A stretch of DNA of 43,071 nucleotides from a virus. Below are positions 7,577-41,989 of the stretch, in pieces (the stretch's first letter is position 1; each line of letters starts with the position of its first letter). Made by a program: the position numbers and the translations under genes. The DNA lies in the IMG/VR virus record IMGVR_UViG_3300017446_000007, positions 1 to 43,071 of that record. One strand, given 5' to 3'. The notes under the pieces are model-generated. The model searched no databases, was not told the origin of the DNA, and saw only the letters and a program-made list of their open reading frames with translations.

Positions 7577-7902
7577 AGTTTCCCCCTGCTTTGGAGATAG
7601 CCGCGAGCCTCGTCCGCCGCGGCTCGATTGGCGTTGGCGTGCTTCCTGTCGCGGATCGTGCGGCCGATCAGGAACATCAGCACGCCAAACGTCAGGATGG
7701 TCGCCGCCCACAGGTCGAACGGGCTTCCCTCTCGCTGCCAGATGACGGGGATCGTGAGAAAGCTGGTGCCCCCGACAAAGCCAAGCCCCGTGCGCTCCAG
7801 CCCGTTCATCGTCTCTCTAAAGCGGGTGATCTTGACCACGACCACAATGGTGACGAGCAGCCGCCCAAGGGTCATCATGGCAGCGATGAGGATATCGATC
7901 AT
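7573..7902 (-). CDS. Membrane protein, holin candidate
   Basis: 109 aa, about 3 hydrophobic segments, charged C-terminus, directly upstream of the endolysin. Confidence 0.55.
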   Translation of the reverse strand: MIDILIAAMMTLGRLLVTIVVVVKITRFRETMNGLERTGLGFVGGTSFLTIPVIWQREGSPFDLWAATILTFGVLMFLIGRTIRDRKHANANRAAADEARGYLQSRGKL

Positions 7903-16425: not shown

Positions 16426-17039
16426 TCCAGTGCCTGACGCGGCGCGACGTAGCCGGGCCGGCGGGGGCCTTCACCACCATCCTCCGTACCCGTCGCTGGA
16501 ATGCGGACGGCGCCGACAACATGGAGATCACCGCTCTGGACCGGTGGTGTGGTGCCAACCAAGTACGTCACCGTGCCTCCCGAACGGTCGGGATCTTCGT
16601 AGGCGACGTAATCGGTATCGCCAGCCGCGGTCGCGGAGACGGTCCCGCCATTTACTGCAACACTGGTCCCGTCGCCGTAATAGCGGGTGTGAGCGATGAT
16701 CGTGATCGTCGCCGTCGTGGCTGACACGACACTTGATGGCTCAATATAGCTGTTTTGCAACGCTGTCTCGCGCTTCACGCTATCGGTTTGCTCCTGAGCC
16801 TGGCTGGCGGCTTCCTGCGCGGTCTGCGCGGCTTCCTGCGCCGTTTCTATAGCCCGCTGGGCTTGCTTCAGCGCCTCGTCAAGTTGATCAGTGATGCCGA
16901 GGATTTGCGCGATGGCGTTGAATACGCGCTCGATCTGCTCGGCAAACTGTTGCCAGTAGCGCGTAAACGACAATGTGGGTCGGCCGTCTGCATCCACGAT
17001 CGGCGCACCGGACAACAGGCGGGGCAGTTTTACAGCCAT
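16422..17039 (-). CDS. Tail needle/plug-like coiled-coil protein (P22 gp26 position)
   Basis: 205 aa. Central heptad-rich LDEALKQAQRAIETAQEAAQTAQEAASQAQEQ. Confidence 0.5.
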   Translation of the reverse strand: MAVKLPRLLSGAPIVDADGRPTLSFTRYWQQFAEQIERVFNAIAQILGITDQLDEALKQAQRAIETAQEAAQTAQEAASQAQEQTDSVKRETALQNSYIEPSSVVSATTATITIIAHTRYYGDGTSVAVNGGTVSATAAGDTDYVAYEDPDRSGGTVTYLVGTTPPVQSGDLHVVGAVRIPATGTEDGGEGPRRPGYVAPRQALD

Positions 17040-18412: not shown

Positions 18413-19080
18413 GGGTACTGATCCAGATCGGGGCCAAGCTGATACGAGGCCGGACGGTCCCAATCGAGCATGTCGCGTTCCAGCTGTGCAGCGTCAGCGG
18501 CGACAACCTGTACAGTTTGCGGGTCAGCGCGCACCTTGCCGAACGTCGGCGCCAGTTTCACGGCTAGGTTCTTCCACACCGCCTCCTGAAACATCTGCGG
18601 TACGTCGACCGGATCGCTGGGCTGGATCACGTCGCCAGTGATGCGGCCATAGTCGTATGCTACCGTGACAGCCTGATCCGGCACCGGCCATAGCTGCATC
18701 ACGATGCCGGTCACGTCTTGACGCAGGATATAAATGATAGGCGTTCCGCGCTGATCCTTGGTAGGCAGCACGGCGAACTGATCAGCCTGCCATAGCTGGA
18801 GGATACGCTCGTACCCGTCCTGCACCAGCCGCGCGCTCCCGACCGACAGCGCGCCGGGTAGGATCGCTGACGAAACACCCGCGGCAAAGTCAATTGTCGA
18901 CGCGGTATCGCGCCATAGGTTCAACCCCTTTGCTGCCCAGGCCTTCAGCATCGAATTGAGCCGCACGATGCCATCAGAGATTTCGTCTGCGGTCGGCTGC
19001 TCGCCCGAGGCGATTACGCCAATCTCGCGCATGGCTTGCGTTACCATGTCGCGAGCCGTCATCGTGAAGCTGGTGACCAT
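18409..19080 (-). CDS. P22 gp4-like head-to-tail adaptor
   Basis: 223 aa from ATG 19080. ARDMVTQAMREIGV...DEISDGIVRLNSMLKAW resembles the gp4 N-terminus as recalled from memory. Confidence 0.55.
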   Translation of the reverse strand: MVTSFTMTARDMVTQAMREIGVIASGEQPTADEISDGIVRLNSMLKAWAAKGLNLWRDTASTIDFAAGVSSAILPGALSVGSARLVQDGYERILQLWQADQFAVLPTKDQRGTPIIYILRQDVTGIVMQLWPVPDQAVTVAYDYGRITGDVIQPSDPVDVPQMFQEAVWKNLAVKLAPTFGKVRADPQTVQVVAADAAQLERDMLDWDRPASYQLGPDLDQYP

Positions 19081-22181: not shown

Positions 22182-23432
22182 CTACGGGCGAGCTGGGACA
22201 GGGACAAGCCGCGGTTCGGCCTTCCACGTCACCCGGCTCACTTCCTTCATCTGGCGCCCATTGCCGAGGTCACCAGAGCTGCACGAGAGCAGCTTGTCGA
22301 TACAGTTCGCGATCCACATCGCCATCACGTCGTCGTCCCACGCGCCGAACCAGTCGGCGTGGATCGTCGAGCCCGCGGGCATGCGGGGCATCCCGGGCAT
22401 CTCGTCCGATGACAGATACCAGCTGTCCGCGCGCGCTTCGTCCACGGTGTACCATGCGCCCATCGTGAACGAAGGAATGACGTACGGGTGCGTCGCCGGG
22501 CACTTTAGGTAGCCCCACGACCCGTAGCCGGCGTCGGCGATGTGGTCGCGGTGGTTCGGGCTGTCGAGCCGCACGCCGTCCCAGCACGGCGGGGCGACAA
22601 TGATCCCGCCCAGCCGGTTGCCCGCGGGGCAGTTGGCCGCAGCCTCGGTGATCGTCTCGTAATGACCGGGCTTCGCGGTGGGGCCGTCGCAGTTGAAGTA
22701 GCCGCCCCCGGTCGCGGGCTTGCCGGTCATCGCGTCGTGGCCGAAGATGAAGCGCAGGCCGCGGGGCAGCGCGACGCACGCCTTGCCCTGACGCTGGCAC
22801 TCGGCGGCGTCCGCTGGCAGCCGCTTGTAATAGACGTTGATGAAGTCCGGCCGGACGACGTGGCCCTTGCCGTCGAGCATCGCCGGCATCCAGTATGCCG
22901 AGCGGTTCAAGACGTTGACGCAGGTGCTGTCGCCGGTCTTGCGCAGGCTGTCGTAGGTGCTGTTCGCGTTCGCCGCGGTGTTGCCGAACCACTGGTGCAG
23001 GTGGCTCTTGCCCGGCTGCTTCGGATAGACGAGCGGGTCGTCGTAGCTGACGGGCCCGGGGTTGCAGACGAACCGGAACGCGCCGACGGTATCCGGGCGG
23101 CCGGTCGGCGCGATCGCCCCCTTCTGCCCGCCGGTATAATCCTGCGTCCAGCCGATCAGCGAGGCGACATCCTCCTTCGTTGGGACGATCGCGGGCACCT
23201 TCGTGAAGTCGACGCCCAGCTCGGGCACCTCGATGTCGCCGACCGGCTTCGTGATCTTGCCTAGCGCGCGCAGATACTGCTCACGCCAGACCGGCCAGCT
23301 CTTCGCCACAGGCTCGCCCAGGGCCGACGCCACCGGCGGGGCGTCGCGCTTCAGCGTCGGCGTCTGGGCCGACACTGGCGCCGCGATGAAAGATGCGACC
23401 ACTGCCAATATGGTGCTAATCAGAATACGCAT
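22182..23432 (-). CDS. Secreted DUF1996-family protein
   Basis: 416 aa. Sec signal MRILISTILAVVASFIAAPVSA/QT. FRFVCNPGPVSYDDPLVYPKQPGKSHLHQWFGN matches the DUF1996 signature as recalled. Confidence 0.65.
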   Translation of the reverse strand: MRILISTILAVVASFIAAPVSAQTPTLKRDAPPVASALGEPVAKSWPVWREQYLRALGKITKPVGDIEVPELGVDFTKVPAIVPTKEDVASLIGWTQDYTGGQKGAIAPTGRPDTVGAFRFVCNPGPVSYDDPLVYPKQPGKSHLHQWFGNTAANANSTYDSLRKTGDSTCVNVLNRSAYWMPAMLDGKGHVVRPDFINVYYKRLPADAAECQRQGKACVALPRGLRFIFGHDAMTGKPATGGGYFNCDGPTAKPGHYETITEAAANCPAGNRLGGIIVAPPCWDGVRLDSPNHRDHIADAGYGSWGYLKCPATHPYVIPSFTMGAWYTVDEARADSWYLSSDEMPGMPRMPAGSTIHADWFGAWDDDVMAMWIANCIDKLLSCSSGDLGNGRQMKEVSRVTWKAEPRLVPVPARP

Positions 23433-23446
23433 CTCTCGACTTCCTG

Positions 23447-23452
23447 ATTATA
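23447..23452 (-). promoter_or_regulatory. Candidate -10 element for the DUF1996 gene
   Basis: Perfect TATAAT on the minus strand, 14 nt before ATG 23432. No convincing -35. A hairpin (23464-23481) lies just upstream. Confidence 0.35.
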
Positions 23453-23498
23453 GCTGAGAGCGACAGCCGCGGACACGGCTGCAACAGGGAGAGATTGG

Positions 23499-23678
23499 GT
23501 GTACGTGCCACGGGAACAGCTACGCGACATTCGCGTCGCCAAAGGCCAGATCGAAGCCGCCACGTCGGTAGATGAACTACGCGCCCCGCTGCTCGCGATA
23601 TGTCGCATCATCGAGCATGAACTCGCCGAGGATGTGGCTGATACCGACCTGATATTAGGTCGTCCGCGAGGCAGTTGA
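23499..23678 (+). CDS. Micro-ORF, 59 aa, opposite strand, divergent from the DUF1996 gene
   Basis: GTG lies 5 nt after GGGAGAG. Helical-looking VYVPREQLRDIRVAKGQIEAATSVDELRAPLLAICRIIEHELAEDVADTDLILGRPRGS. Confidence 0.35.
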   Translation: MYVPREQLRDIRVAKGQIEAATSVDELRAPLLAICRIIEHELAEDVADTDLILGRPRGS

Positions 23679-23685
23679 CCGGACA

Positions 23686-24861
23686 TCAAATGCCTCGCAA
23701 GCGGCGGAACAGCTCAGCGTAGGAAGCGGCCTCCAGACCATAGCCGAGCGCGGTCGGGTGAACGGTATCGCTGACCATGCCCGCAGCGCTCGATGCCGCG
23801 AACGAAACCCACGATGCGCGAACGTCAAGCACCGGAACGTCAGCCGCGAGCGCTGTTGCGATCGTTGCCGCGGCGTAGGCGTCCTGTTGCGGCGTAGCGC
23901 CGCTCGTCACGCTGTCGTAGATGGGTGTCGCTACGATCACGTCGCCCGACAGCTTGCCCTGCGCGATACCGGCCGCAAGGTTTGCCTGGAATACGCCGAT
24001 GTCGGTCGACTGACGCCAGTCGTTGATCGCCCAGTCACCGAGGATTGAGAGATCCGGTGCGATTGCTGTCCAAGCCTTCAGCGTCGAGGCGTTGGCGTCC
24101 GTGTCGTTGAGGAACTGTGCCGAGCGCTGCCCGCTGGCTCCCCAATTGAGCAAGCTGATTTCGCGGCGATTGCCTGCATCATCATAGGCCGTGACGCCGA
24201 CCAAACGAGGCGTTCCTGCCACCCAAGAGAGAGTGAGTGCATGCGTTCCAGAAGCACCTGCGCTGACAGTCGTCTTGGCGACTTGGATCGTGCCGCTGGT
24301 GGCGAGGTTCGTGGCTGCACCTCCATCCACCGCATACGAGAATGTATTGCCAGCTGCCCCATCACGCCACCAGATATCGAACTTGGTGACCGGTCCCTGC
24401 GGTGTGAATACGATCGTGCCTGCGGAACCGGCCCCGACAGCGAAGCCGTTGCCGCCGACCGTTGCGAAACTCGTCGGCGCTGCGCTGCCCGTGAACACCA
24501 GCCGCCCGTCAGCCGCTGCGATGGCGGCGCCCGTCTGCGCGCCGCCGTAACCTACCTTGTCGCCGAAGAAGTTGTTGGCTCCAGCCGGTATGCCCTGTGC
24601 CTGCAACATGCGGGCAAGCTGCATCGGCCACGAGTTGACTGCCTGCGTCGCCCCACCGCCGGTCGACTGTCCTGCTACGGTCGAAGGGCCGATGCACGCC
24701 ACAAGGGCGTTGCGGCTCGGGTTGGCCATCGCAGCACGGATGCGAAGCGTGTTCGACGGCTTCAGGTTGATGATGTTGACGCCGAGGTTGGCTGCCACAG
24801 CGTTGGAGGTCTTCGGCCCAGCGCTATTGAATTCCACGGCATCGAAGTTGGTAACGCCCAT
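23686..24861 (-). CDS. SGNH/GDSL-family hydrolase (esterase/deacetylase-like)
   Basis: 391 aa. Block I-like CIGPSTVAG, block III-like WAINDW, block V DTVHPT. GGGAG before the ATG. Confidence 0.6.
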   Translation of the reverse strand: MGVTNFDAVEFNSAGPKTSNAVAANLGVNIINLKPSNTLRIRAAMANPSRNALVACIGPSTVAGQSTGGGATQAVNSWPMQLARMLQAQGIPAGANNFFGDKVGYGGAQTGAAIAAADGRLVFTGSAAPTSFATVGGNGFAVGAGSAGTIVFTPQGPVTKFDIWWRDGAAGNTFSYAVDGGAATNLATSGTIQVAKTTVSAGASGTHALTLSWVAGTPRLVGVTAYDDAGNRREISLLNWGASGQRSAQFLNDTDANASTLKAWTAIAPDLSILGDWAINDWRQSTDIGVFQANLAAGIAQGKLSGDVIVATPIYDSVTSGATPQQDAYAAATIATALAADVPVLDVRASWVSFAASSAAGMVSDTVHPTALGYGLEAASYAELFRRLRGI

Positions 24862-28580: not shown

Positions 28581-29315
28581 TTAGTACCCAGTGGTTTCGT
28601 AGCGATCAGACGGACGAGCCCGCTCATCGTCATACCGCTCCACCGGCTTTGTCATTGCACGACCCATGCCGGACATCACCAGATAGCGCTCAGCGTCCAT
28701 GAGGTGATCGCGCTCTTTGACGATCTTACCCTTCTCGTCTCGGCGATATAGTCGGCGCTCCGATCGCAGGTTTTGAAGCGTGGAGAACGCGCGGAGCCGG
28801 CGAGACTGTAAGCGACGATAGACCGCGAAGATGCCGGCCTCGACCTCATTATTGGCGAGATGCAGGTCGAGCCCCATCGTCGCGTACTCGTCCCGTAACG
28901 CCCGCCCGTCGACCTGACTGCGGCCCCGCGAGGCAGGATCGATTACCCCTGGGATCCAGTCGCCCCGTGCGCGGATCGCCTCGGCGTGGACCTGCGGAGG
29001 GGCCTCGCCGACGTAGTATTCGTCGTACTCGTAGATCGTATCTGTCTCGCGGTCCCAAGCGCCCCAAATGACAGCCGTGCGGTTCCATCCGACGTCAAGC
29101 GCATAGGCTCGTGGCCAGTATGCCGGGATCTGGAACGGCTCAACGATCCAGTCGTCTTCGCTCACCGGGTAGATCACCCCTGAGCCCAGCGCCGGTATGC
29201 CCTTGGATCGCGCATCGCGCTGGTGTGGGGGGATCGACGCCATCAACTCGGCTTTGTCGTTCGCCGAGAGATGGGGCACGTCGTCCCAATCGATCTGGAT
29301 GGACCACTTGCTCAC
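28581..29315 (-). CDS. Terminase large subunit, nuclease (C-terminal) part
   Basis: 244 aa. YALDVGWNRTAVIW...IYEYDEY...ERDHLMDAERY nuclease-domain signature. GTG start in a GTGA overlap. Confidence 0.8.
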   Translation of the reverse strand: MSKWSIQIDWDDVPHLSANDKAELMASIPPHQRDARSKGIPALGSGVIYPVSEDDWIVEPFQIPAYWPRAYALDVGWNRTAVIWGAWDRETDTIYEYDEYYVGEAPPQVHAEAIRARGDWIPGVIDPASRGRSQVDGRALRDEYATMGLDLHLANNEVEAGIFAVYRRLQSRRLRAFSTLQNLRSERRLYRRDEKGKIVKERDHLMDAERYLVMSGMGRAMTKPVERYDDERARPSDRYETTGY

Positions 29316-30004
29316 GCGACAGGTGCCAGATTAGGCAGAAACGACAGCGCAACGTCGGTCAGGCCAGACAGCGGTGTGAAGGTGGCGATCACCATGCCGC
29401 GCGTCGTCATCGTGCGGATCAGCGCCTCGGTGTAAATGTCCATTGGCGGCTCCTCGTCCAGCCAGATGCCGTCGCGCTCGGTGCCCTGCCACTTGGCGCG
29501 GCCCTGATCGTAGCTACGAAACTGGCACACGCTGTTGCCGCCGCTGACGTGTCGAACGGTGCCAATGTCGATCAGCCCCGGCACACCCGATGCCGTCGTC
29601 ATGCCGAGGATCGTGTCGCGCGGGATCATGCCGGTGCCGCGATCCTCCACCGGGCCGAACAGCTTCCGACAAGGCACGTCGCGTGTCGTGGTAGAGGTGT
29701 CGCCGCCGCACAGCCAGTTGGTCGGGTGGTCAAAGCGATAGCCTGGCCACCAGTCGGGATACAGCCCCGTCAGGTGCAAGGTGACCTCGTAGGCTCCGAT
29801 ACCCTCGCTCTTGCCGACGCGGTTGGCAGCGACCGCAGCGCGCTCACGGTGCTGGAGGCCAGCCGCGAAAAACTGCATATGCTTTCCGTACAGCTCGCGG
29901 CGCAACGGGCCTTCATCAGGGTAATAAGTCCATAGCCGGCGACCAGCTTGGCGGCGTTCCTTCTCTTCGAGCAACGCCAGCAATTCGAGCTTATCCGCGA
30001 TCAC
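29312..30004 (-). CDS. Terminase large subunit, ATPase (N-terminal) part
   Basis: 230 aa. Walker A AANRVGKSEG, Walker B GIWLDEEP, coupling motif ATFTP. Confidence 0.8.
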   Translation of the reverse strand: MIADKLELLALLEEKERRQAGRRLWTYYPDEGPLRRELYGKHMQFFAAGLQHRERAAVAANRVGKSEGIGAYEVTLHLTGLYPDWWPGYRFDHPTNWLCGGDTSTTTRDVPCRKLFGPVEDRGTGMIPRDTILGMTTASGVPGLIDIGTVRHVSGGNSVCQFRSYDQGRAKWQGTERDGIWLDEEPPMDIYTEALIRTMTTRGMVIATFTPLSGLTDVALSFLPNLAPVA

Positions 30005-33291: not shown

Positions 33292-33564
33292 TCAGAGCAT
33301 CCCAAGGGCCTGCATGTAGACCTCCAGAATGGATTGCTCCTCTTGGTACTCCTCGCGCTTCTTCTTGCGGATCGCGAGGATCTTCCGGATCGCCTTGGCA
33401 TCATAGCCCCGGCTTTTCGCCTCGCTCATGACATCCTTGATGTCGTCTGCGATGCCCTTCTTCTCTTCCTCCAAACGCTCCGCGCGCTCGATCAGAAGCC
33501 GCAGCTCGTCTTCCGCAATGCGACCACCACCCATGCCTTCTCCGCGAGTTTCAGTATCGGTCAT
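33292..33564 (-). CDS. GapR-like DUF2312 DNA-binding protein
   Basis: 90 aa from ATG 33564 after AGGAGA. LRLLIERAERLEEEKKGIADDIKDVMSEAKSRGYDAKAIRKILAIRKK...LEVYMQALGML. Confidence 0.85.
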   Translation of the reverse strand: MTDTETRGEGMGGGRIAEDELRLLIERAERLEEEKKGIADDIKDVMSEAKSRGYDAKAIRKILAIRKKKREEYQEEQSILEVYMQALGML

Positions 33565-33677
33565 TTCTTGTCTCCTGAAGGGATGCTGATGACGGGGTGA
33601 AAGCCCAAAACAATGACGCGATCGTTCTGGATGAAAGGCCGAAGGTGCACGGGCGTTTCCAAGATGATGTGGCTCAC
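33561..33677 (-). CDS. Micro-ORF, 38 aa
   Basis: Bridges a 109-nt gap, with a GTGA overlap at its start and an ATGA overlap with the GapR start. Sequence VSHIILETPVHLRPFIQNDRVIVLGFHPVISIPSGDKK. Confidence 0.3.
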   Translation of the reverse strand: MSHIILETPVHLRPFIQNDRVIVLGFHPVISIPSGDKK

Positions 33678-34018
33678 GCAGCCCTCCGCATCTTGGCAAT
33701 TTGAGCCGGCGAATAGTTGAGCAGGATCGCCGCTGTTTCGAGCTTGCATCCGCGCTGCTTGGCGGTCTTGGCGTAGAGCGCGCACATCGCCTCCTCCAGC
33801 TTGGCACTGGCTTTGGCAGCGGTGAGGGAGGGATCGGCGACGGCGCCGCGAAAGCGCGATGCAGCAAAGCGGGGATTGCTCCTGACCACCTGCGCCCGCG
33901 CTTGCCGGCACCGCGATTGCGTGATCTCGTAACCCATGCCGATCAGGGCGGCGTGAGCCTTGTTGCCGTCCATCTCGGTGACGAGCGACGTCAGCAGGCT
34001 TTTGGGAGGGGCCTTCAT
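33674..34018 (-). CDS. Hypothetical protein
   Basis: 114 aa, ATGA overlap. Confidence 0.55.
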   Translation of the reverse strand: MKAPPKSLLTSLVTEMDGNKAHAALIGMGYEITQSRCRQARAQVVRSNPRFAASRFRGAVADPSLTAAKASAKLEEAMCALYAKTAKQRGCKLETAAILLNYSPAQIAKMRRAA

Positions 34019-34173
34019 GCCGGCTCTCCCCGACGCTGAATCTGCGCGGCCCGGTTCTTGCGATAAGCTGCGATCTCAGGGCTGTTGCGCTTGGCTTCGA
34101 CCATGGCGGTCAGGATGCCGTGCGGGTCACGACGGACGGGCTTGCCGCCGAGGATGGCGCGGAGCAGGTTCAT
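34015..34173 (-). CDS. Micro-ORF, 52-aa basic protein
   Basis: ATGA overlaps at both ends. Sequence MNLLRAILGGKPVRRDPHGILTAMVEAKRNSPEIAAYRKNRAAQIQRRGEPA. Confidence 0.4.
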   Translation of the reverse strand: MNLLRAILGGKPVRRDPHGILTAMVEAKRNSPEIAAYRKNRAAQIQRRGEPA

Positions 34174-34589
34174 GCCGCCCTCAGCGCAACGACCTTGCTA
34201 TCCAGCAGGTCACGTTCGCAGTCGGCGATCTCACGCCCGCCGGGACTGTCAGGATGATGCGCCTTGCCCTTGGCGGCGAGGTAATCGCGGGCGATCGTTT
34301 CGAACTCGTCGTGGTCGACGCCCTCCGGGACGCGAACCATCTGCAACCCCTCAGGGAGCAGCATCGAAAGCAGATCGAGCGGAAGGGCGTTGCTCGCCGC
34401 CAGCATGAACACCGCCGGCATTCCGATCGCCGAGGGCTCCTTATCCCTCTCGTTTGAGAAGTAGGAGACGATGGTTGAATAACCGATGCCGCTGTCGAAC
34501 GAGACAGCCTTCAGGCTGATGCCGCGGCGATCCATCTCTCGACGGATGACCCGCTGGCGGTCGCGCATAATCTTGGCAGTGTCGTACAT
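34170..34589 (-). CDS. HTH DNA-binding regulator (cII position)
   Basis: 139 aa. RGISLKAVSFDSGIGYSTIVSYFS helix-turn-helix. Confidence 0.6.
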   Translation of the reverse strand: MYDTAKIMRDRQRVIRREMDRRGISLKAVSFDSGIGYSTIVSYFSNERDKEPSAIGMPAVFMLAASNALPLDLLSMLLPEGLQMVRVPEGVDHDEFETIARDYLAAKGKAHHPDSPGGREIADCERDLLDSKVVALRAA

Positions 34590-34607: not shown

Positions 34608-34835
34608 TTAGACTAAGGTCGAATGATCGATGTTATTGATTTCAGCGCCTACCGAGACGCCCCGAAGCCAGTCAGGCTGCACCTCGCTCGCGTGCTGATG
34701 CTGGTCGAAGCTGCGAAGAAGCTCGGCATCGAGGATATCGACGTCGGACCATTCTTCACGGCCGGCGGCACTGGCGCAGACGAGGACGATCGCCGCGAAG
34801 CATGCAGCGCCGCCGAGGGCGGTGGCGATAATCAT
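34608..34835 (-). CDS. Small N-terminal-TM protein
   Basis: 75 aa. ATGA overlap with the cro-like gene. Confidence 0.5.
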   Translation of the reverse strand: MIIATALGGAACFAAIVLVCASAAGREEWSDVDILDAELLRSFDQHQHASEVQPDWLRGVSVGAEINNIDHSTLV

Positions 34836-35035
34836 GCCCTCACCCCGCTCTGGTCGGGGCGATAAGTGGCCATGAAGCTGCGCACTTTAGCGACAGTTCG
34901 GCGGCGGGGTTCACGATCTTGCTCGCGGACCTGACGGACGAAATGTCGATCCGACAGCGCCAGCTCACCAAACTTCCACTCGCTGAGGCCATGAGCCTGT
35001 ACGAAGGTTTCGATGTCCGATAGCAGCGTGCTCAT
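34832..35035 (-). CDS. Cro-like early repressor
   Basis: 67 aa, divergent from cI. The promoter and operator sit immediately upstream. Confidence 0.6.
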   Translation of the reverse strand: MSTLLSDIETFVQAHGLSEWKFGELALSDRHFVRQVREQDREPRRRTVAKVRSFMATYRPDQSGVRA

Positions 35036-35043
35036 GCCACGAT

Positions 35044-35135
35044 CTTATATGTGGGAAATATCCCACATGCAAGCCGGGTCGCGTGGGATATTTCGCGAGT
35101 CGTCCTTCGCACCTGCGGTGTGGGATATAGCGCGC
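35044..35135. promoter_or_regulatory. OR-like region with three operators and divergent promoters
   Basis: O1 GTGGGAAATATCCCAC 35051-35066 (palindromic). O2 35083-35098. O3 35120-35135. On the minus strand, TTGCAT (35072-35067), 17 nt, TATAAG (35049-35044), then 8 nt before cro ATG 35035. Confidence 0.7.
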
Positions 35136-35729
35136 ATGGCTGGCACGTTCGACATCAAGGCAATCCGCGACGCGATCGCGGCGGAGATGGAGCGCAAAGG
35201 CTTCAGCAAGCGGAAGCTCTCTCTTCAGGCTGGCATAGGTCAGACCGCTGTTCGCGATCTTCTTGAGCGCACGGACAACCCCGGCATCGGTACGCTCTAC
35301 AAAGTCGCTGAAGCCCTCGACATGCCCTTCGAAGCCATCAGCGGGACCGCAGCAGTACCACTTTTGGGTACGATCGGGGCTGGTGGTGCTGTTGCTTTTT
35401 TCGCGGAAGATCAACAGTATGAGACGGTGCCGCGTCCGCCTCTCGCTCCTGGTCCGCTTATGGCCCTCCGGGTTTCCGGAGAGTCCATGCTTCCGAAATA
35501 CGAACCGGGTGACGTCGTGTACGTCCGTCGCGATCACGACGGCGTGCTGCCCGAGTACATAGGCGCATACTGCGCGGTACACTTGGCGGATGGGGGCACC
35601 TACCTAAAGAAGCTGGCAGCCGGGAGCGAACCGGGCCGCTACACCCTGCTTTCCTTGAACGCTGCGGACATGCCGAACGTGGAGGTTATATGGGCCGCGC
35701 CAGTGCTGTTCATTATGCCGCGGCGCTAG
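35136..35729 (+). CDS. cI: CI-type repressor (HTH_XRE plus S24 LexA-like autopeptidase)
   Basis: 197 aa from ATG 35136. HTH KRKLSLQAGIGQTAVRDLL. Catalytic GESM...KKL. Internal AGG possible cleavage site. Confidence 0.85.
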   Translation: MAGTFDIKAIRDAIAAEMERKGFSKRKLSLQAGIGQTAVRDLLERTDNPGIGTLYKVAEALDMPFEAISGTAAVPLLGTIGAGGAVAFFAEDQQYETVPRPPLAPGPLMALRVSGESMLPKYEPGDVVYVRRDHDGVLPEYIGAYCAVHLADGGTYLKKLAAGSEPGRYTLLSLNAADMPNVEVIWAAPVLFIMPRR

Positions 35730-36052
35730 CGTTCGTAGCCGCTTCCGTTGCGCCTGCATCAGCTGCGGAATTTGCCAACGGTAATCAATTGCTCGCTGCC
35801 TGCTCGTCCGAAAATGCGAGCGAAGGTCTGCAATGCATCGCCTTCTTGGACGGCGTACTGATGGGCGCGCTGGTCATATCTGAGCGCGAAAAAACCAGCC
35901 CTCCTTTCTGCATACCGCCAACCGCCACAAACGGGCAGCTCAAGGACGTAGTGACGGCCTTTTTGCGCGATCGCCCGGCCGTTCGTCATTACGGCGGCGG
36001 GGCCTTGACGGTTGTGGCCCTGATCGACGCATTTCCCTGCGCGTCAAAATAA
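35690..36052 (+). CDS. Periplasmic Rap1a/Tai4-like (T6SS amidase-immunity-like) protein
   Basis: 120 aa. GGAGG lies 4 nt before the ATG. Signal peptide ...APASA/AEF. Pattern GNQLLAAC...LQCIAFLDGV...FCIPPTATNGQLKDVVTAFLRDRP...ALIDAFPC. Confidence 0.6.
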   Translation: MGRASAVHYAAALAFVAASVAPASAAEFANGNQLLAACSSENASEGLQCIAFLDGVLMGALVISEREKTSPPFCIPPTATNGQLKDVVTAFLRDRPAVRHYGGGALTVVALIDAFPCASK

Positions 36053-36105
36053 ATGTGAAATATCCCACGGCATGGATTGACGCCGTGTGAAATATCCCAC
36101 ATAAA
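36053..36105 (+). promoter_or_regulatory. OL-like region with two operators overlapping a PL-like promoter
   Basis: Operators ATGTGAAATATCCCAC 36053-36068 and GTGTGAAATATCCCAC 36085-36100. TTGACG 36077-36082, 17 nt, CATAAA 36100-36105. Confidence 0.65.
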
Positions 36106-36143
36106 GCTCCCATACCGGCGATCACCGCCGACAGGGAGCCGAC

Positions 36144-36407
36144 ATGGTCAATCTCAGCAAGTCGAACGCTCAGGGCATCAAGACCGCCCGCCAGCACCTG
36201 ATGCTCGGCAATGCCGGTGCCTACACCCGCTCGATGGCCGGTCTGCACCGCGCCGCTTCCGCCGCTCAGCAGTCGCTGATCTGGTCGGAGGTGCTGCGCG
36301 ACGAGATGCAGCACCATTTCACCCGCATTCACGACGGCAAGACGCTGCTGACGATCGAGCCGGCCCGTGAGGACGACGACCTCGTGCTGGTGGAGATGGC
36401 GGCATGA
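36144..36407 (+). CDS. Hypothetical early protein
   Basis: 87 aa. GGGAG upstream. First gene after the PL-like promoter. Confidence 0.6.
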   Translation: MVNLSKSNAQGIKTARQHLMLGNAGAYTRSMAGLHRAASAAQQSLIWSEVLRDEMQHHFTRIHDGKTLLTIEPAREDDDLVLVEMAA

Positions 36408-36658
36408 GCGCCCTCACTGAACAGCTTGATGCGTTGCTCGCCGAACACGGTTTGAGCAGCATCACCCTTACCCGCATCGCGCGAGCCAACGGCGACGGTT
36501 GCTTCTGGTCTATCAACGCGCAGGACAATGGTCAGATCGGCGGCAACGGTCTGCGCGGCGGCGACAATCCGGCAGCGGAAATCGCTGTCGCTATCGAAGA
36601 GCTGAACGCCAAGCGTCACGCGCCGGTCGTTGTGCCTGAGCTGGAGCAGGTGGCATGA
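36404..36658 (+). CDS. Hypothetical early protein
   Basis: 84 aa, ATGA overlap. Confidence 0.6.
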   Translation: MSALTEQLDALLAEHGLSSITLTRIARANGDGCFWSINAQDNGQIGGNGLRGGDNPAAEIAVAIEELNAKRHAPVVVPELEQVA

Positions 36659-37089
36659 GCGCGCGTTGTGGCATGCCGCCTGCCGGTTGGACCTGCATGC
36701 GCAGCGCGGGACACGAAGGCCCGTGTGCCGCTATCTCGTCCGCTGACAACTTGACGCCGCTTTTAGACAAGCTCGAACGGCTTCTCTCCAAAGCGACACC
36801 TGGACCGTGGGAAAGCGACAGTGAGCGGAACGAGGACGGCGCTTACGGCTCCGGCCCTGACCACGGCACCGGCTACGACGATTTCCTGATCGGTGCCAAC
36901 GTTCGTGGAAAGTGGGCGACGCTTCTTACCAGTGAGAACGCTACCGAAAAGCTGATCGATGAGGATCACGACGAAGACTATCATCGCGCGTGGGATAGCG
37001 TCGGGGAAGCCAACGTCGCGCTGGTCGTAGAGGCCGTCAATGCGCTCCCCATCCTTCTGGCAGCGCTGCGCACACAGGTGCAGGCATGA
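36655..37089 (+). CDS. Ead/Ea22-like protein
   Basis: 144 aa. ATPGPW...NVALVVEAVNALPILLAAL pattern. Confidence 0.55.
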   Translation: MSARCGMPPAGWTCMRSAGHEGPCAAISSADNLTPLLDKLERLLSKATPGPWESDSERNEDGAYGSGPDHGTGYDDFLIGANVRGKWATLLTSENATEKLIDEDHDEDYHRAWDSVGEANVALVVEAVNALPILLAALRTQVQA

Positions 37090-37319
37090 ACGCCTACACC
37101 CCCATGCTCAGCGCCGACATCGCCCGCACGGTCGATGCGCTCGGAGAGCGACAGGCGGCGGCGATCGCGCGCTTTGGCCTGAACGGCCCGAACCAACCGC
37201 TGACCCGCGTCGAGTGCGCCCGCCTCGCTGACGGCAGCGCCACCCGCATTAGCGCGCTGTTCTCCGCAACCGACGAGCAGGTCGCCGACCGGCTGTACCA
37301 GATGTTCGGGGGCCGCTGA
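37086..37319 (+). CDS. Hypothetical early protein
   Basis: 77 aa, ATGA overlap. Confidence 0.55.
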   Translation: MNAYTPMLSADIARTVDALGERQAAAIARFGLNGPNQPLTRVECARLADGSATRISALFSATDEQVADRLYQMFGGR

Positions 37320-37320
37320 G

Positions 37321-37770
37321 ATGGGTATCATCCTCACCGGAGCCGAGGCAGTCAGCGCGTATAGCAGCCGCTGGCCTGCCTTCCTCCCGTTGGCGTTGTC
37401 GGATCGCACCGCGCCTGACGCCGCTCAGCGTCTGGAACAGGCAAGCCGCTGGACGGATACCGCCGCCCCGCTGCTCGCCGCATACCTCGCCATCTACGAC
37501 GCCCACGATCGCGCCTACAGCACCGAGCATCAGGCAAGCCGTGACGTGCTGCTGCGCATGTACGCTGGCAACCTGTCGGACCTGCACGACGAGATTGAGG
37601 CGGTTCGCGACGAGGCGCTATCGGAGGCGGGTGTGACCGCGCACCACGTTCTCGATACGCCGGAAGCCATCGAGATCGCCGACGCGACCAACGACTGGCT
37701 GGCGGACGAGGTGGTATCGGTCAGGGATGCGATCGACGCTGCTTTCCGTCAGCGGAGCCGAGCGCTGTGA
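37321..37770 (+). CDS. Hypothetical early protein
   Basis: 149-aa ORF. Confidence 0.6.
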   Translation: MGIILTGAEAVSAYSSRWPAFLPLALSDRTAPDAAQRLEQASRWTDTAAPLLAAYLAIYDAHDRAYSTEHQASRDVLLRMYAGNLSDLHDEIEAVRDEALSEAGVTAHHVLDTPEAIEIADATNDWLADEVVSVRDAIDAAFRQRSRAL

Positions 37771-38018
37771 CCCCCGTCCACGTCACCCACCACGCAGCGC
37801 TTCGCTATGTCGAGCGGGTCAACGCCAAGCTGACGATCGAGGAAGCCGCCGAGGCAATTCGCGGTCACGCCAGCGCGATTGAGGCCGCGGCGAAGTTCCG
37901 GTGCTGCACCGTCATCATGGGCGAGGGCGGCAAGCTGCTGCTGGCCGGCACGCGGGTCGTGACGGTGTTGCCCCGATCGTCGCGGTACATGCCGCGCGGG
38001 CTGGAGGCACTGCTGTGA
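37767..38018 (+). CDS. Hypothetical early protein
   Basis: 83 aa. GTG start in a GTGA overlap. Confidence 0.5.
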   Translation: MTPVHVTHHAALRYVERVNAKLTIEEAAEAIRGHASAIEAAAKFRCCTVIMGEGGKLLLAGTRVVTVLPRSSRYMPRGLEALL

Positions 38019-38143
38019 CCGAAGCTCTCGCCGCAACCCTCATGCTGTGCCTGCTTACCAGCGCACTCTGGGTCACTCTCCCCATCATTGCTGACGGTAT
38101 CGTTGCTGCTGTCGGCGTACTGTTCCCGAGGAAGGGTCTGTAA
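38015..38143 (+). CDS. Micro-ORF, 42-aa single-TM peptide
   Basis: GTG lies 7 nt after GGAGG (38003-38007). GTGA overlap upstream and TAATG junction downstream. Confidence 0.45.
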   Translation: MTEALAATLMLCLLTSALWVTLPIIADGIVAAVGVLFPRKGL

Positions 38144-38892
38144 TGAACGCTGTGACAAAGACCGAAGCCGCTGGTGAAGTTCAGGACTTCAATGGCGGGC
38201 TGCTGTCCGTGATCGAGCGCGCCGCACGCGACCCAAACATTGATGTTGACAAGATGGAGCGGCTGTTCGCGCTGCAAGAGCGTGTCCAGGAGCGCGCCGC
38301 CAAACAGGCGTTTGTCGAAGCCAAGGTCGCGATGCGGGCTGAATTGCCCGAAATCACCATGAAGGGCTCCATCCGCATCGTCAAAGACAGCAAGCTGATC
38401 CAAGAGACGCCGTTCGCGCGGTTCGAGGATATCCACGAGGCTGTCACGCCAGTGCTGACAGAGTACGGCTTCGACCTGTCCTACCGCAACGGTCTGTCTC
38501 CGGACGGTAAGGTGCGCGTAACCACAATCCTGTCGCACATCGCTGGCCATCAGGAGGAAACTTCGTTCGACCTGCCGCACGATAGCAGTGGCAGTAAGAA
38601 CAGCGTGCAGGCTGTTGGCTCGTCCACCAGCTACGGCAAGCGATATGGCACGCTGTCGATCCTCAACATCAAGGTGTCCGGCGAGGATGACGACGCCAAC
38701 AGCGCCGTGCCCGAGGCGTGCATCAGCAAAGCGCAGCGCGACCAGATCAACAGTGCCCTGGACGAGCTTGCAGCCGACAAACCAGCTTTCTGTCGCTACC
38801 TGAAGGTCGAGGCCGTCGCCGACATTCTTGCCCGCGACTTTGACAAGGCGTGGAAGGCTGTTGAGGCCAAGCGTCGACAGGCCGCAAAGTGA
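38143..38892 (+). CDS. erf: ERF-family single-strand annealing protein
   Basis: 249 aa. QAVGSSTSYGKRYGTLSILNIKVSGEDDDA matches the ERF signature (P22 Erf-like). Confidence 0.7.
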   Translation: MNAVTKTEAAGEVQDFNGGLLSVIERAARDPNIDVDKMERLFALQERVQERAAKQAFVEAKVAMRAELPEITMKGSIRIVKDSKLIQETPFARFEDIHEAVTPVLTEYGFDLSYRNGLSPDGKVRVTTILSHIAGHQEETSFDLPHDSSGSKNSVQAVGSSTSYGKRYGTLSILNIKVSGEDDDANSAVPEACISKAQRDQINSALDELAADKPAFCRYLKVEAVADILARDFDKAWKAVEAKRRQAAK

Positions 38893-39497
38893 TGGAGATC
38901 GTCACCTGTGAGCAGGGCACGCCTGAATGGCTGGCTGCCCGTGCTGGCATCCCCACGGCCAGCATGTTTGCCACCGTCCTCGCTAAGGGCAAGGGCGCTG
39001 AGGCCAGCAAGACGCGTTCGACCTACATGCGCAAGCTGGCTGGCGAAATCATCACTGGCGAGCCAATGGATAGCTTCAGCAACGCGCACATGGAGCGCGG
39101 CCATGTCATGGAGAGCGAGGCTCGCGACGCCTACGCCTTCCTGCACGACACTCGGCCCGAACAGATCGGCTTCATTCGCAACGGCACAAAGGGGTGCAGC
39201 CCCGATAGCCTGATCGGCGGTGCTGGCATGGTCGAGATCAAGACCAAGTTGCCCCACCTCCAGATCGAGGTGCTGGAACGCGGGACGCTGCCCCCGGAAC
39301 ACAAGGCGCAATGCCAAGGCGCGCTGTGGGTAGCCGAGCGCGAGTGGATCGATTTCGTATCCTACTGGCCTAAGATGCCGCTGTTTGTGTGCCGGGTCAC
39401 TCGGGACGAGGAATACATTGCCACTCTGTCGGATGCAGTCGACGCTTTTAACGATGAGCTGGCCATGCTGGTCGACCGAGTGAGGGCTTACGCATGA
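38889..39497 (+). CDS. YqaJ/lambda-exonuclease-like recombination exonuclease
   Basis: 202 aa. QGTPEWLAARAGIPTAS...MVEIK PD-(D/E)xK pattern. Confidence 0.8.
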   Translation: MMEIVTCEQGTPEWLAARAGIPTASMFATVLAKGKGAEASKTRSTYMRKLAGEIITGEPMDSFSNAHMERGHVMESEARDAYAFLHDTRPEQIGFIRNGTKGCSPDSLIGGAGMVEIKTKLPHLQIEVLERGTLPPEHKAQCQGALWVAEREWIDFVSYWPKMPLFVCRVTRDEEYIATLSDAVDAFNDELAMLVDRVRAYA

Positions 39498-39661
39498 CGC
39501 TCAGCCAACACCCCCGCGCTATCCGCCGTCGCGAGCTTTACGCAGCCGACCCGCTGTATCGGCTTTCCGCGCTCAAGGCACTGTGGGAGGCGCGTGAGAC
39601 GATGCGCCGCGCCGGCCTGCGCAATCGCCGGGTCGACGGCGCTCGCGAGTGGAGGCCCTGA
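39494..39661 (+). CDS. Micro-ORF, 55-aa basic protein
   Basis: ATGA overlap upstream. Its TGA shares one nt with the next ATG. Confidence 0.4.
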   Translation: MTLSQHPRAIRRRELYAADPLYRLSALKALWEARETMRRAGLRNRRVDGAREWRP

Positions 39662-40008
39662 TGCTCCCCGCTCGCCTCGCCAAACCACAAAAGCGCGCCA
39701 CTCGCTGGCGGTCGCAGGCTCATTGCTCATTCGTCCGCGGCTTTGCGTGCAGCATGTGTGGGGCGACGGCTCCGATCGAGGTGGCGCATGTCCGCCTCGG
39801 CTCGGGCGCTGGCATGGGGCAGAAGCCTGACGACTGGCGCACGGTCAGTTTGTGCGGCGGTGTGGACGGCTGCCACGCTCGCCAGCATCGCGTCGGCGAG
39901 GCGACGTTCTGGCGCGGAAAGAACGTCGAGGCGCTTATTGCCGCGTTCATTGAGGCGAGCCCCCGAAAGCAGCAGATCAAGATGGCACAGCGGGAGCGCG
40001 GGCTATGA
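39661..40008 (+). CDS. DUF968-like Cys/His protein (HNH-related)
   Basis: 115 aa from ATG 39661, 5 nt after GGAGG. C..MCG...AHVR...KPDDW..VSLC...CH..QH pattern. Confidence 0.55.
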   Translation: MLPARLAKPQKRATRWRSQAHCSFVRGFACSMCGATAPIEVAHVRLGSGAGMGQKPDDWRTVSLCGGVDGCHARQHRVGEATFWRGKNVEALIAAFIEASPRKQQIKMAQRERGL

Positions 40009-40406
40009 ACGGCCAAACCATCATCCTCCGCGGCACCAGCCAGCGTGATTTCGCCAAGCAGTTGATCGACCGCGCGCCGGCCGATGCTGTGGTCAACATC
40101 CAAGCCGCACGCCGCACGATCGACCAGAACGCTCGCATGTGGGCAATGCTGTCGGACGTGAGCCGCTCCAAGCCGGAAGGCCGCAGCGCCACGCCCGAGG
40201 TATGGAAGGCGCTGTTCATGCACGCCTGCGGCCATGCGGTGCAGTTCGAGATCGGCTTGAACGGCCAGCCATTCCCGACCGGGTTCCGCTCCAGCGCCAT
40301 GACAAAGGCGCAGATGAGCGACCTGATCGAGACAATCTACGAGTACGGCGCGCGGTTTGACGTGCGCTGGTCTGATCCCACTATTCAGCAGGAGCGAGCA
40401 GCATGA
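40005..40406 (+). CDS. ninB: NinB/Orf recombination mediator
   Basis: 133 aa. RTIDQNARMWAMLSDVS...EVWKALF...RWSDP closely parallels lambda NinB. Confidence 0.8.
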   Translation: MNGQTIILRGTSQRDFAKQLIDRAPADAVVNIQAARRTIDQNARMWAMLSDVSRSKPEGRSATPEVWKALFMHACGHAVQFEIGLNGQPFPTGFRSSAMTKAQMSDLIETIYEYGARFDVRWSDPTIQQERAA

Positions 40407-40570
40407 GTATCGTGTCGATTTACATCCTCGCATCGACCGTCGCCCTGGCGTTTATCGCAGCTATCTGGAGCAACAACGGCGTCGCGAACATCCTGATGAA
40501 GCTGGCGCTCGTAGGCTTAGCTGTCGTCGGGGCGATCTGCTCGGCGAGTGTGTTGGGTATCGCCGCATGA
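40403..40570 (+). CDS. Micro-ORF, 55-aa two-TM peptide
   Basis: ATGA overlaps at both ends. Confidence 0.45.
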   Translation: MSIVSIYILASTVALAFIAAIWSNNGVANILMKLALVGLAVVGAICSASVLGIAA

Positions 40571-40701
40571 CCCCCGCCAAGAGCTACCGCGACCGTCTGG
40601 AGCCGCGCCCCGGCTTCCCGATCCGCCGTCCTACGATCGACGGTGAGCCTGTCGAGAAGAAGCGGACGGTGCTGGGGCTGTTCGGGAGGGGGCAGGCATG
40701 A
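40567..40701 (+). CDS. Micro-ORF, 44-aa basic peptide
   Basis: ATGA overlaps at both ends. Confidence 0.35.
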   Translation: MTPAKSYRDRLEPRPGFPIRRPTIDGEPVEKKRTVLGLFGRGQA

Positions 40702-41045
40702 CCAGCGATGTTCTGACCCGCGGCAAATCGCCGGCCGCATGGTGCGCAGCGTTCAAGGAGAAAGGGCTGATCCTTTCTGAACGCACGCTGCGCTCCCGCG
40801 CGCGCGAACTCAACGAGTGCTATATTGTCGGCGCAGCGATGCTGATCCTGCCCGAACAGATTGATCGAATATTGGAGGAAAGCGCGTGCCGCTCGAAGCA
40901 TACCCCCGCGGCAAAACCTGGTGGGCGCGGGGCAAGGTCGAATACGACGGCCTCCCTATCACCGGCTACATCCGCGAAAGCACTGGCGCATCTACAGAAG
41001 CAGGCGCGCAAGAGTGGATCCGCACACGGACGACGCTCGAATTAA
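40698..41045 (+). CDS. Excisionase-position DNA-binding-like protein
   Basis: 115 aa. The first ~60 aa look like a real protein. The last 160 nt overlap int out of frame and are low-complexity. Confidence 0.4.
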   Translation: MTSDVLTRGKSPAAWCAAFKEKGLILSERTLRSRARELNECYIVGAAMLILPEQIDRILEESACRSKHTPAAKPGGRGARSNTTASLSPATSAKALAHLQKQARKSGSAHGRRSN

Positions 41046-41989
41046 GGCGCTACCACCTCGGCGAGGATGCCGAGGAAAAGGAATACACATTCGCCGCTGC
41101 TGTCATGGAATACGAGGCATCGCCCGATATGGCAAAGCATCTGATCCCGATCGTCGGCCGTCTTGGCTCCGTACCGGTGAGCAAGATCACGCCGGAACAG
41201 GTCCGCGACCTTGCACGCCAGCTATACCCAAACAACTCTACTGACACTTGGCGTCGGTGGGTCATCACCCCTACTCGCGCCGTCATTAACAAGGCGAACC
41301 AGCTTGGCCGCTGCCCGCCGATCCGCATTGCCGGGTTCACCCAGCGTGAGCGCATCGAGCAGGACAAGCGCCGCGGGACAACGAGCCGGAAGAAGAAAAC
41401 GCCGGGGTCGTGGGATTGGCTGCTGGCGTTCCGAGAGAAGGCTGGTCGATATCATGCCGCCCTCGCCTTCTTCATGTTCGCGACCGGCGCGCGCGTTGGT
41501 CAGGCTGTTACGATGACCCCGAAGCATCTGGACCTTGCCGCCGGCACCGCGACCATCCCCGGCGCTAAGGGGCATGACGATCGTATTGTGCGCCTCCCAC
41601 CCGAGCTGGTGGAGGAACTTAAGGTCCTGCCTCCCAAGCACCCGAAAGATTGGGAGCGAAAACCGAGGAACCTGCGCGTGTTCGGGTTTGCCTCACGAAC
41701 CGGCCCGCTGTCGGGTTGGAAGACGGCTTGCAAGCGCGCTGGTATCGAATACCTCCCTCCCCACTCGTCCGGCCGGCACGGCTTCGGACAGGAGATGCGC
41801 GTCCGCCAAGGCGTCGACACGAAGGCGATCGAAGCCGTGGGCGGTTGGTCCGCGCAGAGCAATCTCATCGACCGCACATACAGCCACGCAGAGGACGCTG
41901 ACGCCAAGATTTTGGAGGCTCTTCGTACAGGACGCGTACAAGCAGAAAAAAGGATTGGACTTAAACCCGCAGAAAAGGTAGAAGAATAG
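40886..41989 (+). CDS. int: Tyrosine integrase
   Basis: 367 aa. GTG lies 7 nt after GGAGG. ATGARVGQ (Arg), HSSGRHGFG (His-x-x-Arg), GGW, RTYSH (Tyr). Confidence 0.85.
   Translation: MPLEAYPRGKTWWARGKVEYDGLPITGYIRESTGASTEAGAQEWIRTRTTLELRRYHLGEDAEEKEYTFAAAVMEYEASPDMAKHLIPIVGRLGSVPVSKITPEQVRDLARQLYPNNSTDTWRRWVITPTRAVINKANQLGRCPPIRIAGFTQRERIEQDKRRGTTSRKKKTPGSWDWLLAFREKAGRYHAALAFFMFATGARVGQAVTMTPKHLDLAAGTATIPGAKGHDDRIVRLPPELVEELKVLPPKHPKDWERKPRNLRVFGFASRTGPLSGWKTACKRAGIEYLPPHSSGRHGFGQEMRVRQGVDTKAIEAVGGWSAQSNLIDRTYSHAEDADAKILEALRTGRVQAEKRIGLKPAEKVEE

Follow-up and report, generated by a model that had tools for sequence, protein, structure and literature searches.

A Rap1a-family gene between the cI-type repressor gene and the OL-type operators of a P22-like phage: a variable cassette and a candidate orphan immunity protein

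What might a temperate phage gain from carrying, between its repressor gene and the next set of operators, a gene related to those with which bacteria protect themselves against type VI secretion systems (T6SS)? This question is raised by an open reading frame (ORF) of 120 residues (35690–36052, plus strand, ATG start) in the IMG/VR virus record IMGVR_UViG_3300017446_000007, the 43,071 nucleotides (nt) of which were analyzed as one stretch, called the window below. To judge from its genes the window is a temperate P22-like phage. Its 120-residue protein belongs to the Rap1a family, and the slot that the gene occupies exchanges very different alleles between similar phages. The function that we favor, namely immunity against the T6SS effectors of neighboring bacteria, is put forward with somewhat less than even confidence and is weighed against its rivals after the evidence.

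The Rap1a-like ORF is preceded by a ribosome-binding site of its own, a GGAGG (35681–35685, plus strand) located 4 nt 5' of the ATG within the 3' end of the cI repressor ORF, which ends at 35729 and with which the overlap amounts to 40 nt. Both features, noted in a preliminary description made from the letters of the window, can be read directly in the sequence, and the junction between the two genes, GTGGAGGT...ATGGG, is kept in four related phages (L003, L004, L043 and L044). Likewise, every element of the cysteine-spaced pattern on which that description had based its family assignment is present in the ORF: N32..LL..C38, C49..F..GV, F73-C74-I-P...T80-N-G-Q-L-K-D-V-V..F-L...P96, and F115-P116-C117. 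Residues 1–25 (35690–35764, plus strand) constitute a predicted Sec signal peptide, recognized from sequence features: the N-terminus MGRASAVHYAAALAFVAASVAPASA, followed by AE after the cleavage site, contains a basic residue, a hydrophobic core (best Kyte-Doolittle mean over 10 residues, 2.32) and the site A-S-A, after which cleavage is predicted. A comparable N-terminal extension precedes the conserved G-N motif in 79 of 81 aligned homologues. The mature domain (residues 26–120, corresponding with the stop codon to 35765–36052, plus strand) carries the four conserved cysteines C38, C49, C74 and C117, which would fit an oxidizing compartment; together with the features of the N-terminus they point to export into the periplasm.

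The family assignment is unambiguous. The protein matches the Pfam family Rap1a (PF18602) with an E value of 5.9e-18 and a score of 65.6 bits (cutoff 27.7), residues 30–117 covering profile positions 1–90 of 90, and Rap1a is the only Pfam family found for the 120-residue ORF at E ≤ 1. In PHROGs it falls into phrog_3870, a group of unknown function; NCBIfam and PADLOC produced no matches. When 1.84 billion cluster representatives were searched exhaustively with phmmer, 5023 relatives were recovered at E ≤ 1e-3 (representatives at 50% clustering), nearly all of 105–135 residues; the Pfam match and the number of these relatives show that the ORF is not a chance one. Across 81 aligned relatives, the residues G31, C38 and C49 do not vary; N32, G55, C74, Q83, D86, P96, R99, P116 and C117 show conservation of 90% or more, which for C74 and C117 reaches at least 95%. 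The latter two align with the residues that form the disulfides C78–C122 of Rap1a and C80–C124 of Tai4 from Agrobacterium tumefaciens (AtTai4). The Rap1a-like protein is part of a large clade distinguished by the second cysteine pair, C38/C49, and by the motif T80-x-G-Q83-x-x-D86. Some family members (P0008, P0013, P0037, P0046, P0080 and P0130) are longer, with 170–209 residues and a C-terminal Rap1a domain; they have an additional N-terminal segment or match in two stretches, and may be tandem or fused forms.

Whereas a single-sequence phmmer search with the Rap1a-like protein found no match among the PDB sequences, the profile built from its homologues retrieved Tai4 (6IJF, E 3e-4) and Rap1a (4BI8, E 3e-3), both of which align at C74 and at the F-P-C117 end. 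The AlphaFold2 model calculated on the alignment of 81 relatives has a mean predicted local distance difference test (pLDDT) score of 91.9 and a predicted template modeling (pTM) score of 0.78. Its mature part consists of four helices (31–38, 43–67, 81–94 and 103–114), and the predicted signal peptide forms a separate N-terminal helix (residues 6–18) of lower pLDDT. The first seven PDB matches listed by Foldseek are exclusively 4BI8, 3ZFI, 6IJE and 6IJF, that is Rap1a and AtTai4, with a probability of 1.00 and target-normalized template modeling (TM) scores of 0.61–0.74, and the next one has an E value of 1.7. The proposed relationship thus holds at the level of the profile, by the full-length match to PF18602, as well as at that of the structure, where the model fits Rap1a and AtTai4 with TM scores of 0.66–0.74. 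However, the label Rap1a/Tai4 used in the preliminary description lumps two distinct folds, since the Rap1a fold, named 'Tai4a', differs from that of the Tai4 proteins Rap2a, EcTai4 and StTai4 (PMC3852654), a group that also takes in Rap1b. Only the former applies here: no match to Pfam Tai4 was obtained at E ≤ 1, and no Tai4 structure from Enterobacter or Salmonella and no Rap2 structure was present among the Foldseek matches listed. The 120-residue protein is thereby established as a genuine Rap1a/Tai4a protein, distinct from Tai4 proper.

Two members of this family have been characterized experimentally; each acts as a dimer that neutralizes Tae4-family effectors by plugging the active site (PMC3852654, PMC6277958). 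Rap1a (SMA2260 of Serratia marcescens; PDB 3ZFI and 4BI8), the immunity protein to the T6SS effector Ssp1, is a five-helix dimer in which the C78–C122 disulfide is required for folding and Gln84 plugs the active site of Ssp1, contacting its catalytic histidine (PMC3852654). The phage protein shares with it the PF18602 domain, the five-helix fold (target-normalized TM 0.73–0.74), a cleaved N-terminal signal (predicted here), a similar size, and the cysteine pair by which the C-terminal F-P-C is tied to the loop preceding helix 4 (C74/C117 vs. C78/C122). It differs by a sequence identity of only about 21%, by the extra conserved C38/C49 pair, by the presence of Thr80 of the clade-specific T-N-G-Q at the position of Gln84 in an ungapped alignment, and by its genomic location, the phage gene standing beside cI and that of Rap1a beside its effector in a T6SS cluster. 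AtTai4 (PDB 6IJE and 6IJF), the immunity protein to Tae4, has the Rap1a fold and is a dimer with one disulfide, C80–C124 (PMC6277958). Like the phage protein it is an alphaproteobacterial protein of the Rap1a fold; it provides the best profile link to the PDB, and an acidic residue at D86 as well as the F-P-C end are kept. On the other hand, the identity is 18–20%, and AtTai4 lacks both the C38/C49 pair and the TNGQ motif and is encoded with its effector.

How would such a gene be expressed in a phage? The cI-type repressor (35136–35729, plus strand, 197 residues) contains the Pfam domains HTH_3 (E 1.5e-6) and Peptidase_S24 (E 8e-11) and matches PHROG 4, 'transcriptional repressor', with an E value of 1e-20. 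The longest ORF would begin at 35013 and cross three operators, and the ATG at 35136 was consequently taken as the true start. A pattern search located three OR-type operators of 16 bp each 5' of cI (35051–35066, 35083–35098 and 35120–35135) and two OL-type operators (36053–36068 and 36085–36100) directly 3' of the stop codon of the Rap1a-like gene. The operator motif, GTG(G/T)GA-N4-TCCCAC-like, gives seven strand-matches in the window, where shuffles lead one to expect 0.33, and is confined to the two intergenic regions flanking cI and the Rap1a-like gene. The OL-type operators bracket a predicted PL-like promoter (plus strand), read as hexamers, with TTGACG (36077–36082) as −35 and CATAAA (36100–36105) as −10 separated by a 17-nt spacer. 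On the other side, a cro-like ORF of 67 residues (34832–35035, minus strand; function from position only) starts 16 nt from the first operator as the first gene of a divergent, rightward-type early operon. The placement of the gene between cI and OL-like operators, as described previously, is thereby borne out, the gene lying on the cI strand with operators at 36053 and 36085 after its stop codon. The overall order is OR, cI, Rap1a-like gene and OL/PL, with the operon for recombination and integration behind them.

A scan of positions 34700–36500 for promoters and terminators returned no promoter-like or terminator-like site. From the 40-nt overlap with cI and this lack of signals in the interval we infer, on what we consider sound grounds, that the Rap1a-like gene is transcribed with cI in the lysogen. 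At the other end, the RNA 3' of the Rap1a-like stop codon (36050–36143) contains no intrinsic terminator and no significant structure (z −1.4). Two further details of the control region were observed. A promoter-like TTGCAT-17 nt-TATAAG on the minus strand holds the operator 35051–35066 exactly in its spacer, its −10 ending 8 nt before the cro-like ATG; and the operator 35120–35135 abuts the cI ATG at 35136, which has no Shine-Dalgarno sequence. Both the cro-like gene and cI thus look leaderless (35036–35138).

The arrangement recalls phage lambda, in which rexA and rexB are co-transcribed with cI and lie between cI and OL/PL. The Rap1a-like gene matches them in where it lies and in which direction it points within a lambda-type immunity region, and is therefore expected to be expressed in lysogens as they are. 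The two are not homologous: the Rex proteins form an abortive-infection pair of cytoplasm and membrane, and the Rap1a-like gene encodes a single, soluble protein predicted to be exported. In lambda, the terminator timm lies downstream of rexB, and no equivalent of it was detected after the Rap1a-like gene.

Comparison with related phages indicates that the slot between cI and OL is a variable cassette. In L003, L004, L043 and L044 the stop codon of the Rap1a gene is directly followed by the window's operators (TGTGAAATATCCCAC, or as first site in L043 a close variant) and its TTGACG element. Among these same-operator phages the repressors are 58–91% identical to that of the window at the amino acid level, and the Rap1a alleles 35–50%. 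The respective values for cI and the Rap1a allele are 91% and 50% (47% in the mature part) in L003, 73% and 35% in L043, 60% and 43% in L004, and 58% and 41% in L044; in L005, the operators of which were not examined, they are 55% and 46%. Between the window and L003, nucleotide identity is 87–92% in the OL/PL block and 56–60% inside the cassette, and the Nei-Gojobori method gives for cI a nonsynonymous divergence (dN) of 0.06 and a synonymous divergence (dS) of 0.80, for the cassette a dN of 0.53 and a saturated dS. Fast evolution of the alleles in situ was considered and set aside, as the saturated dS of the cassette next to 0.80 in the adjoining cI is better explained by exchange: the alleles would be older than the DNA that flanks them. 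All alleles of the related phages score above the threshold of Pfam Rap1a (49–74 bits), including that of L043, which lacks the TNGQ and FPC motifs and still reaches 49 bits. Such hypervariability fits an inhibitor whose specificity is determined in an arms race.

The first gene after PL is also unrelated among the same-operator phages (935–1255 in L003, 6459–6773 in L004, 36144–36407 in the window), which places a mosaic breakpoint just 3' of the PL promoter.

The genomic contexts of relatives were sampled through 12 representatives taken from the top 150 (P0002, P0003, P0004, P0010, P0020, P0030, P0069, P0090, P0100, P0120, P0157 and P0164). All informative contexts among them are phage or mobile-element DNA, and five of the 12 are coupled to a repressor. 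The genes of P0002, P0003 and P0004 (50, 42 and 45% identity) each stand directly 3' of an S24 repressor gene and overlap it; that of P0030 overlaps an S24 repressor gene by 55 nt and stands before a TTGACA promoter whose palindrome differs; and that of P0120 is located 3' of a short HTH_31 repressor, the pair being flanked by CCTCG...CGAGG sites. A DNA pattern derived from the cI/Rap1a junction recovered two further phages (L043/L045 and L044). Altogether, the repressor-Rap1a pairing recurs in eight phage loci besides the window. With an S24 repressor it is seen in L003, L004, L005, L037/L038, L043/L045 and L044. A version with a short helix-turn-helix (HTH) regulator occurs in L039 and in the Microcystis phages Mwe-JY25 and Mwe-JY07, in the latter two of which the regulator gene overlaps the Rap1a-family gene.

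Other relatives are found in different settings. In 19–20 low-GC contigs of uncultured phages from IMG/VR (L007–L025), which look virulent, a Rap1a-family gene stands among the early genes. Its product has 110–111 residues (e.g. L008, 3956–4291) and, like Rap1a, no C38/C49 pair; the genes around it are early and DNA-modification genes, with a cytosine methyltransferase-like ORF adjoining in several contigs and no repressor adjacent. The virulent-looking phage DSL-LC04 likewise has a relative among its early genes. Five viral structure models in BFVD have the Rap1a fold, and one relative belongs to a resolvase/excisionase element. Orphan copies without a T6SS nearby reside on rhizobial megaplasmids, under the NCBI name 'Rap1a/Tai family immunity protein', and orphan copies are scattered near insertion sequence (IS) elements. 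A query of IMG/VR with the single protein found no relative, and a scan of genome contigs yielded nothing but a truncated remnant, adjoining an integrase in a metagenome-assembled genome (MAG) of Ensifer.

The reading to which we give most weight, short of an even chance, is that the gene confers orphan T6SS immunity, with Tae4-type effectors as the target; it leads because the only characterized members of the family neutralize effectors of this kind. In the scheme that we infer, the maintenance promoter would drive the gene together with cI, the gene's own GGAGG would serve for translation, and lysogens would make the protein continuously. The product, exported by the Sec pathway and stabilized by disulfides, would act in the periplasm as a five-helix Rap1a ('Tai4a') protein; as a dimer, formed in this family through helix 2, it would bind an incoming papain-like peptidoglycan endopeptidase of the Tae4 class and block its active site sterically, as Rap1a and AtTai4 do. 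The enzyme would come from the T6SS of a neighboring bacterium, which would make the gene an orphan immunity gene carried as lysogenic-conversion cargo, and the exchange of very different alleles between similar phages would retune the effector that is neutralized. Lysogens probably gain protection against cell-wall-cutting toxins, be they those of neighboring bacteria or of other phages.

Mobile protection of this kind has parallels. The acquired interbacterial defence systems of Bacteroidales are borne on integrative and conjugative elements. They are a further example (PMC10470768), and mobile or orphan T6SS immunity genes are already known from arrays in V. cholerae and an islet in Salmonella Typhi (PMC5361080, PMC7400221), while phiRSY1-like prophages of Ralstonia carry whole vgrG-effector-immunity clusters (PMC11481896). 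The resemblance is one of concept, that of horizontally mobile protection against the effectors of neighbors: the former orphans lie in chromosomal arrays or islets and the Ralstonia genes in clusters, whereas the present case is that of one immunity-type gene built into a phage's repressor operon.

Several points weigh against T6SS immunity. No gene for a T6SS component or for a Tae4 or NlpC/P60 domain was found among the window ORFs scanned or in about 20 sampled homologue contexts, so that the gene is at best an orphan. The earlier proposal of an orphan T6SS immunity gene expressed in lysogens is partly supported, for the family, the export-type N-terminus and the position next to cI, with T6SS immunity as a candidate function. 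The family with its 5023 representatives is very large and mostly orphan; the identity to Rap1a and AtTai4 is only 18–22%; and the features of the four-cysteine T-x-G-Q-x-x-D clade are missing from both characterized members. Relatives also occupy the early regions of two more virulent-looking phages, L028, with homologues of N4 gp2 and RNA polymerase, and L031, with its own DNA polymerase; in virulent-looking phages lysogenic conversion cannot be the rationale. Finally, no intrinsic terminator was detected before PL that would end the cI-Rap1a transcript in the lysogen and spare the Erf, exonuclease and integrase genes from readthrough; a repressor roadblock or Rho-dependent termination may do so.

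The relatives in virulent-looking phages (L028, L031, the L007–L025 group and DSL-LC04) are more readily accommodated by superinfection exclusion, the alternative named in the preliminary description and here taken to be of the Spackle type, which we regard as possible though doubtful. The protein would then be a periplasmic inhibitor of the virion-associated peptidoglycan hydrolase of incoming phages or gene transfer agents, and with the enzyme blocked there would be no wall penetration or DNA entry; it would be made with cI in lysogens and early in virulent relatives. The peptidases of the NlpC/P60 class found at lambda-like tail tips and on the baseplates of gene transfer agents are candidate targets. 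The precedent is T4 Spackle, described as an early periplasmic protein that binds the gp5 tail lysozyme and thereby inhibits a peptidoglycan hydrolase entering from outside (PMC7677548), and the analogy offers a rationale for relatives in the early regions of virulent phages. Membership in PHROG 3870, the five BFVD structures and the sampled contexts, where no informative one is that of a T6SS, point in the same direction, as does the slot adjoining cI, which classically houses phage-exclusion genes such as lambda rexAB; the hypervariability of the alleles fits phage-phage conflict equally well. The resemblance to Spackle is, however, a functional analogy only, as no sequence or fold similarity to it appeared among the Foldseek matches listed or in the PDB sequence searches, and the target of Spackle is a muramidase whereas those of the Rap1a family are cysteine endopeptidases. 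Moreover, to our knowledge no Rap1a-family member inhibits a phage enzyme. No NlpC/P60, CHAP or Tae4 domain was detected in the virion proteins of the window, which thus offer no self-type target comparable to that of T4, and PADLOC, as stated, returned no match. Inhibition of the phage's own lysis or entry enzymes was rejected, the endolysin (7022–7711) being a GH24 lysozyme, i.e. a muramidase, and Pfam and PHROG searches of the ejection, tail and large virion proteins revealing no cysteine-peptidase domain.

A broader proposal would reverse the relation between the two settings, and we consider it conceivable rather than likely: Rap1a-fold proteins would be mainly a phage tool, widespread and rapidly exchanged periplasmic inhibitors, of which the T6SS-associated Rap1a/Tai4 proteins are one recruited branch. 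They might, with no greater likelihood, be made from the repressor operon in temperate phages or early in virulent ones and block the peptidoglycan-cutting enzymes of competing phages, tailocins and gene transfer agents. The cassette between cI and OL could, again tentatively, set an exclusion specificity independent of repressor immunity.

It is unlikely that the protein is directed at the host. It would then bind a peptidoglycan endopeptidase of the host's own periplasm, or some other protein of the envelope, and make the wall of lysogens or infected cells more stable, for instance with delayed lysis or an altered receptor as the outcome. The size and mostly orphan state of the family, including the megaplasmid copies of rhizobia without a nearby T6SS, would agree with such a role, and the strong conservation across the clade of the segment equivalent to the plug, C74-x-P...T80-x-G-Q-x-x-D86, could mean a conserved target. 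Yet the conserved T-x-x-Q could be a mere helix-capping box of structural significance, and a cassette that is hypervariable between near-identical immunity regions, with an allele in L043 devoid of TNGQ and FPC, would be unexpected for a conserved host target. Constant inhibition of growth-linked endopeptidases would also be costly to the lysogen, and the phage's own endolysin, as a GH24 muramidase, is of a different enzyme class. That the gene is neutral or decaying hitch-hiking cargo, as the remnant beside the Ensifer integrase and the copies near IS elements might suggest, is very improbable given an intact ORF with conserved ribosome-binding site and signal peptide, the retention of all family-invariant residues, and an intact Pfam-positive allele in the slot of every related phage examined.

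The literature searched contains no report of a cI-linked Rap1a-family gene or of the variable cassette, and nothing specific was found on Rap1a or Tai4 in phages or prophages, although the automatic annotation of UniProt already assigns the Rap1a domain to some phage proteins. If T6SS immunity is the function, arming the host against the cell-wall toxins of neighbors, by means of a swappable cassette wired to the repressor, would be routine for temperate phages of alphaproteobacteria, lysogeny would be tied directly to contact-dependent bacterial warfare, and the large, mostly orphan Rap1a family would find an explanation. If phage exclusion is the function, the family would provide the Spackle principle with a second, widespread case, in which both the fold and the class of the targeted enzyme differ. 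Either possibility is testable, the protein being small and its model confident, with natural alleles of 35–50% identity available in otherwise similar immunity regions.

The remainder of the window is organized as expected from this layout. The early-left, PL-type operon (36144–41989, plus strand) comprises small ORFs, an Erf-like annealing protein (38143–38892; PHROG E 6e-35), an exonuclease (38889–39497; E 3e-37) and an integrase (40886–41989; E 6e-26), all on the plus strand, and with these genes the layout is lambda-like, the Rap1a-like gene being 5' of PL. The minus strand carries an HTH gene (34170–34589), an ORF (33292–33867) with a GapR-like DNA-binding domain in its C-terminal 72 residues (E 1.8e-28), and genes for an O-like replication protein, terminase, portal, capsid, head closure, ejection and tailspike. 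L004 encodes a GapR-like domain too, which suggests a phage-encoded nucleoid-associated protein in the early operon. The best repressor matches are to phages of Paracoccus, Komagataeibacter and Mesorhizobium, and together with the GapR domain they indicate that the host is probably an alphaproteobacterium. The head-closure protein (17039–18463, minus strand) has its closest relatives among isolated phages in the Pseudanabaena phages Pan3 (45% identity) and Pam1 (40%), so that the structural and regulatory modules appear to have differing affinities.

Two regions of the structural genes deserve mention. The large terminase is distributed over two ORFs that overlap by 4 nt (28581–30004, minus strand), of which 29312–30004 corresponds to the ATPase half of phrog_2 (positions 265–404) and 28581–29315 to the nuclease half (424–601); the split may be real, or it may stem from a frameshift or an error of sequencing. 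A stretch located between the capsid and portal genes (22182–24861, minus strand) encodes a DUF1996 protein (22182–23432, E 8e-34) and a GDSL-lipase/acylhydrolase-like protein (23686–24861, E 2e-8), which are unusual for a head module and may be cargo or virion-associated enzymes.

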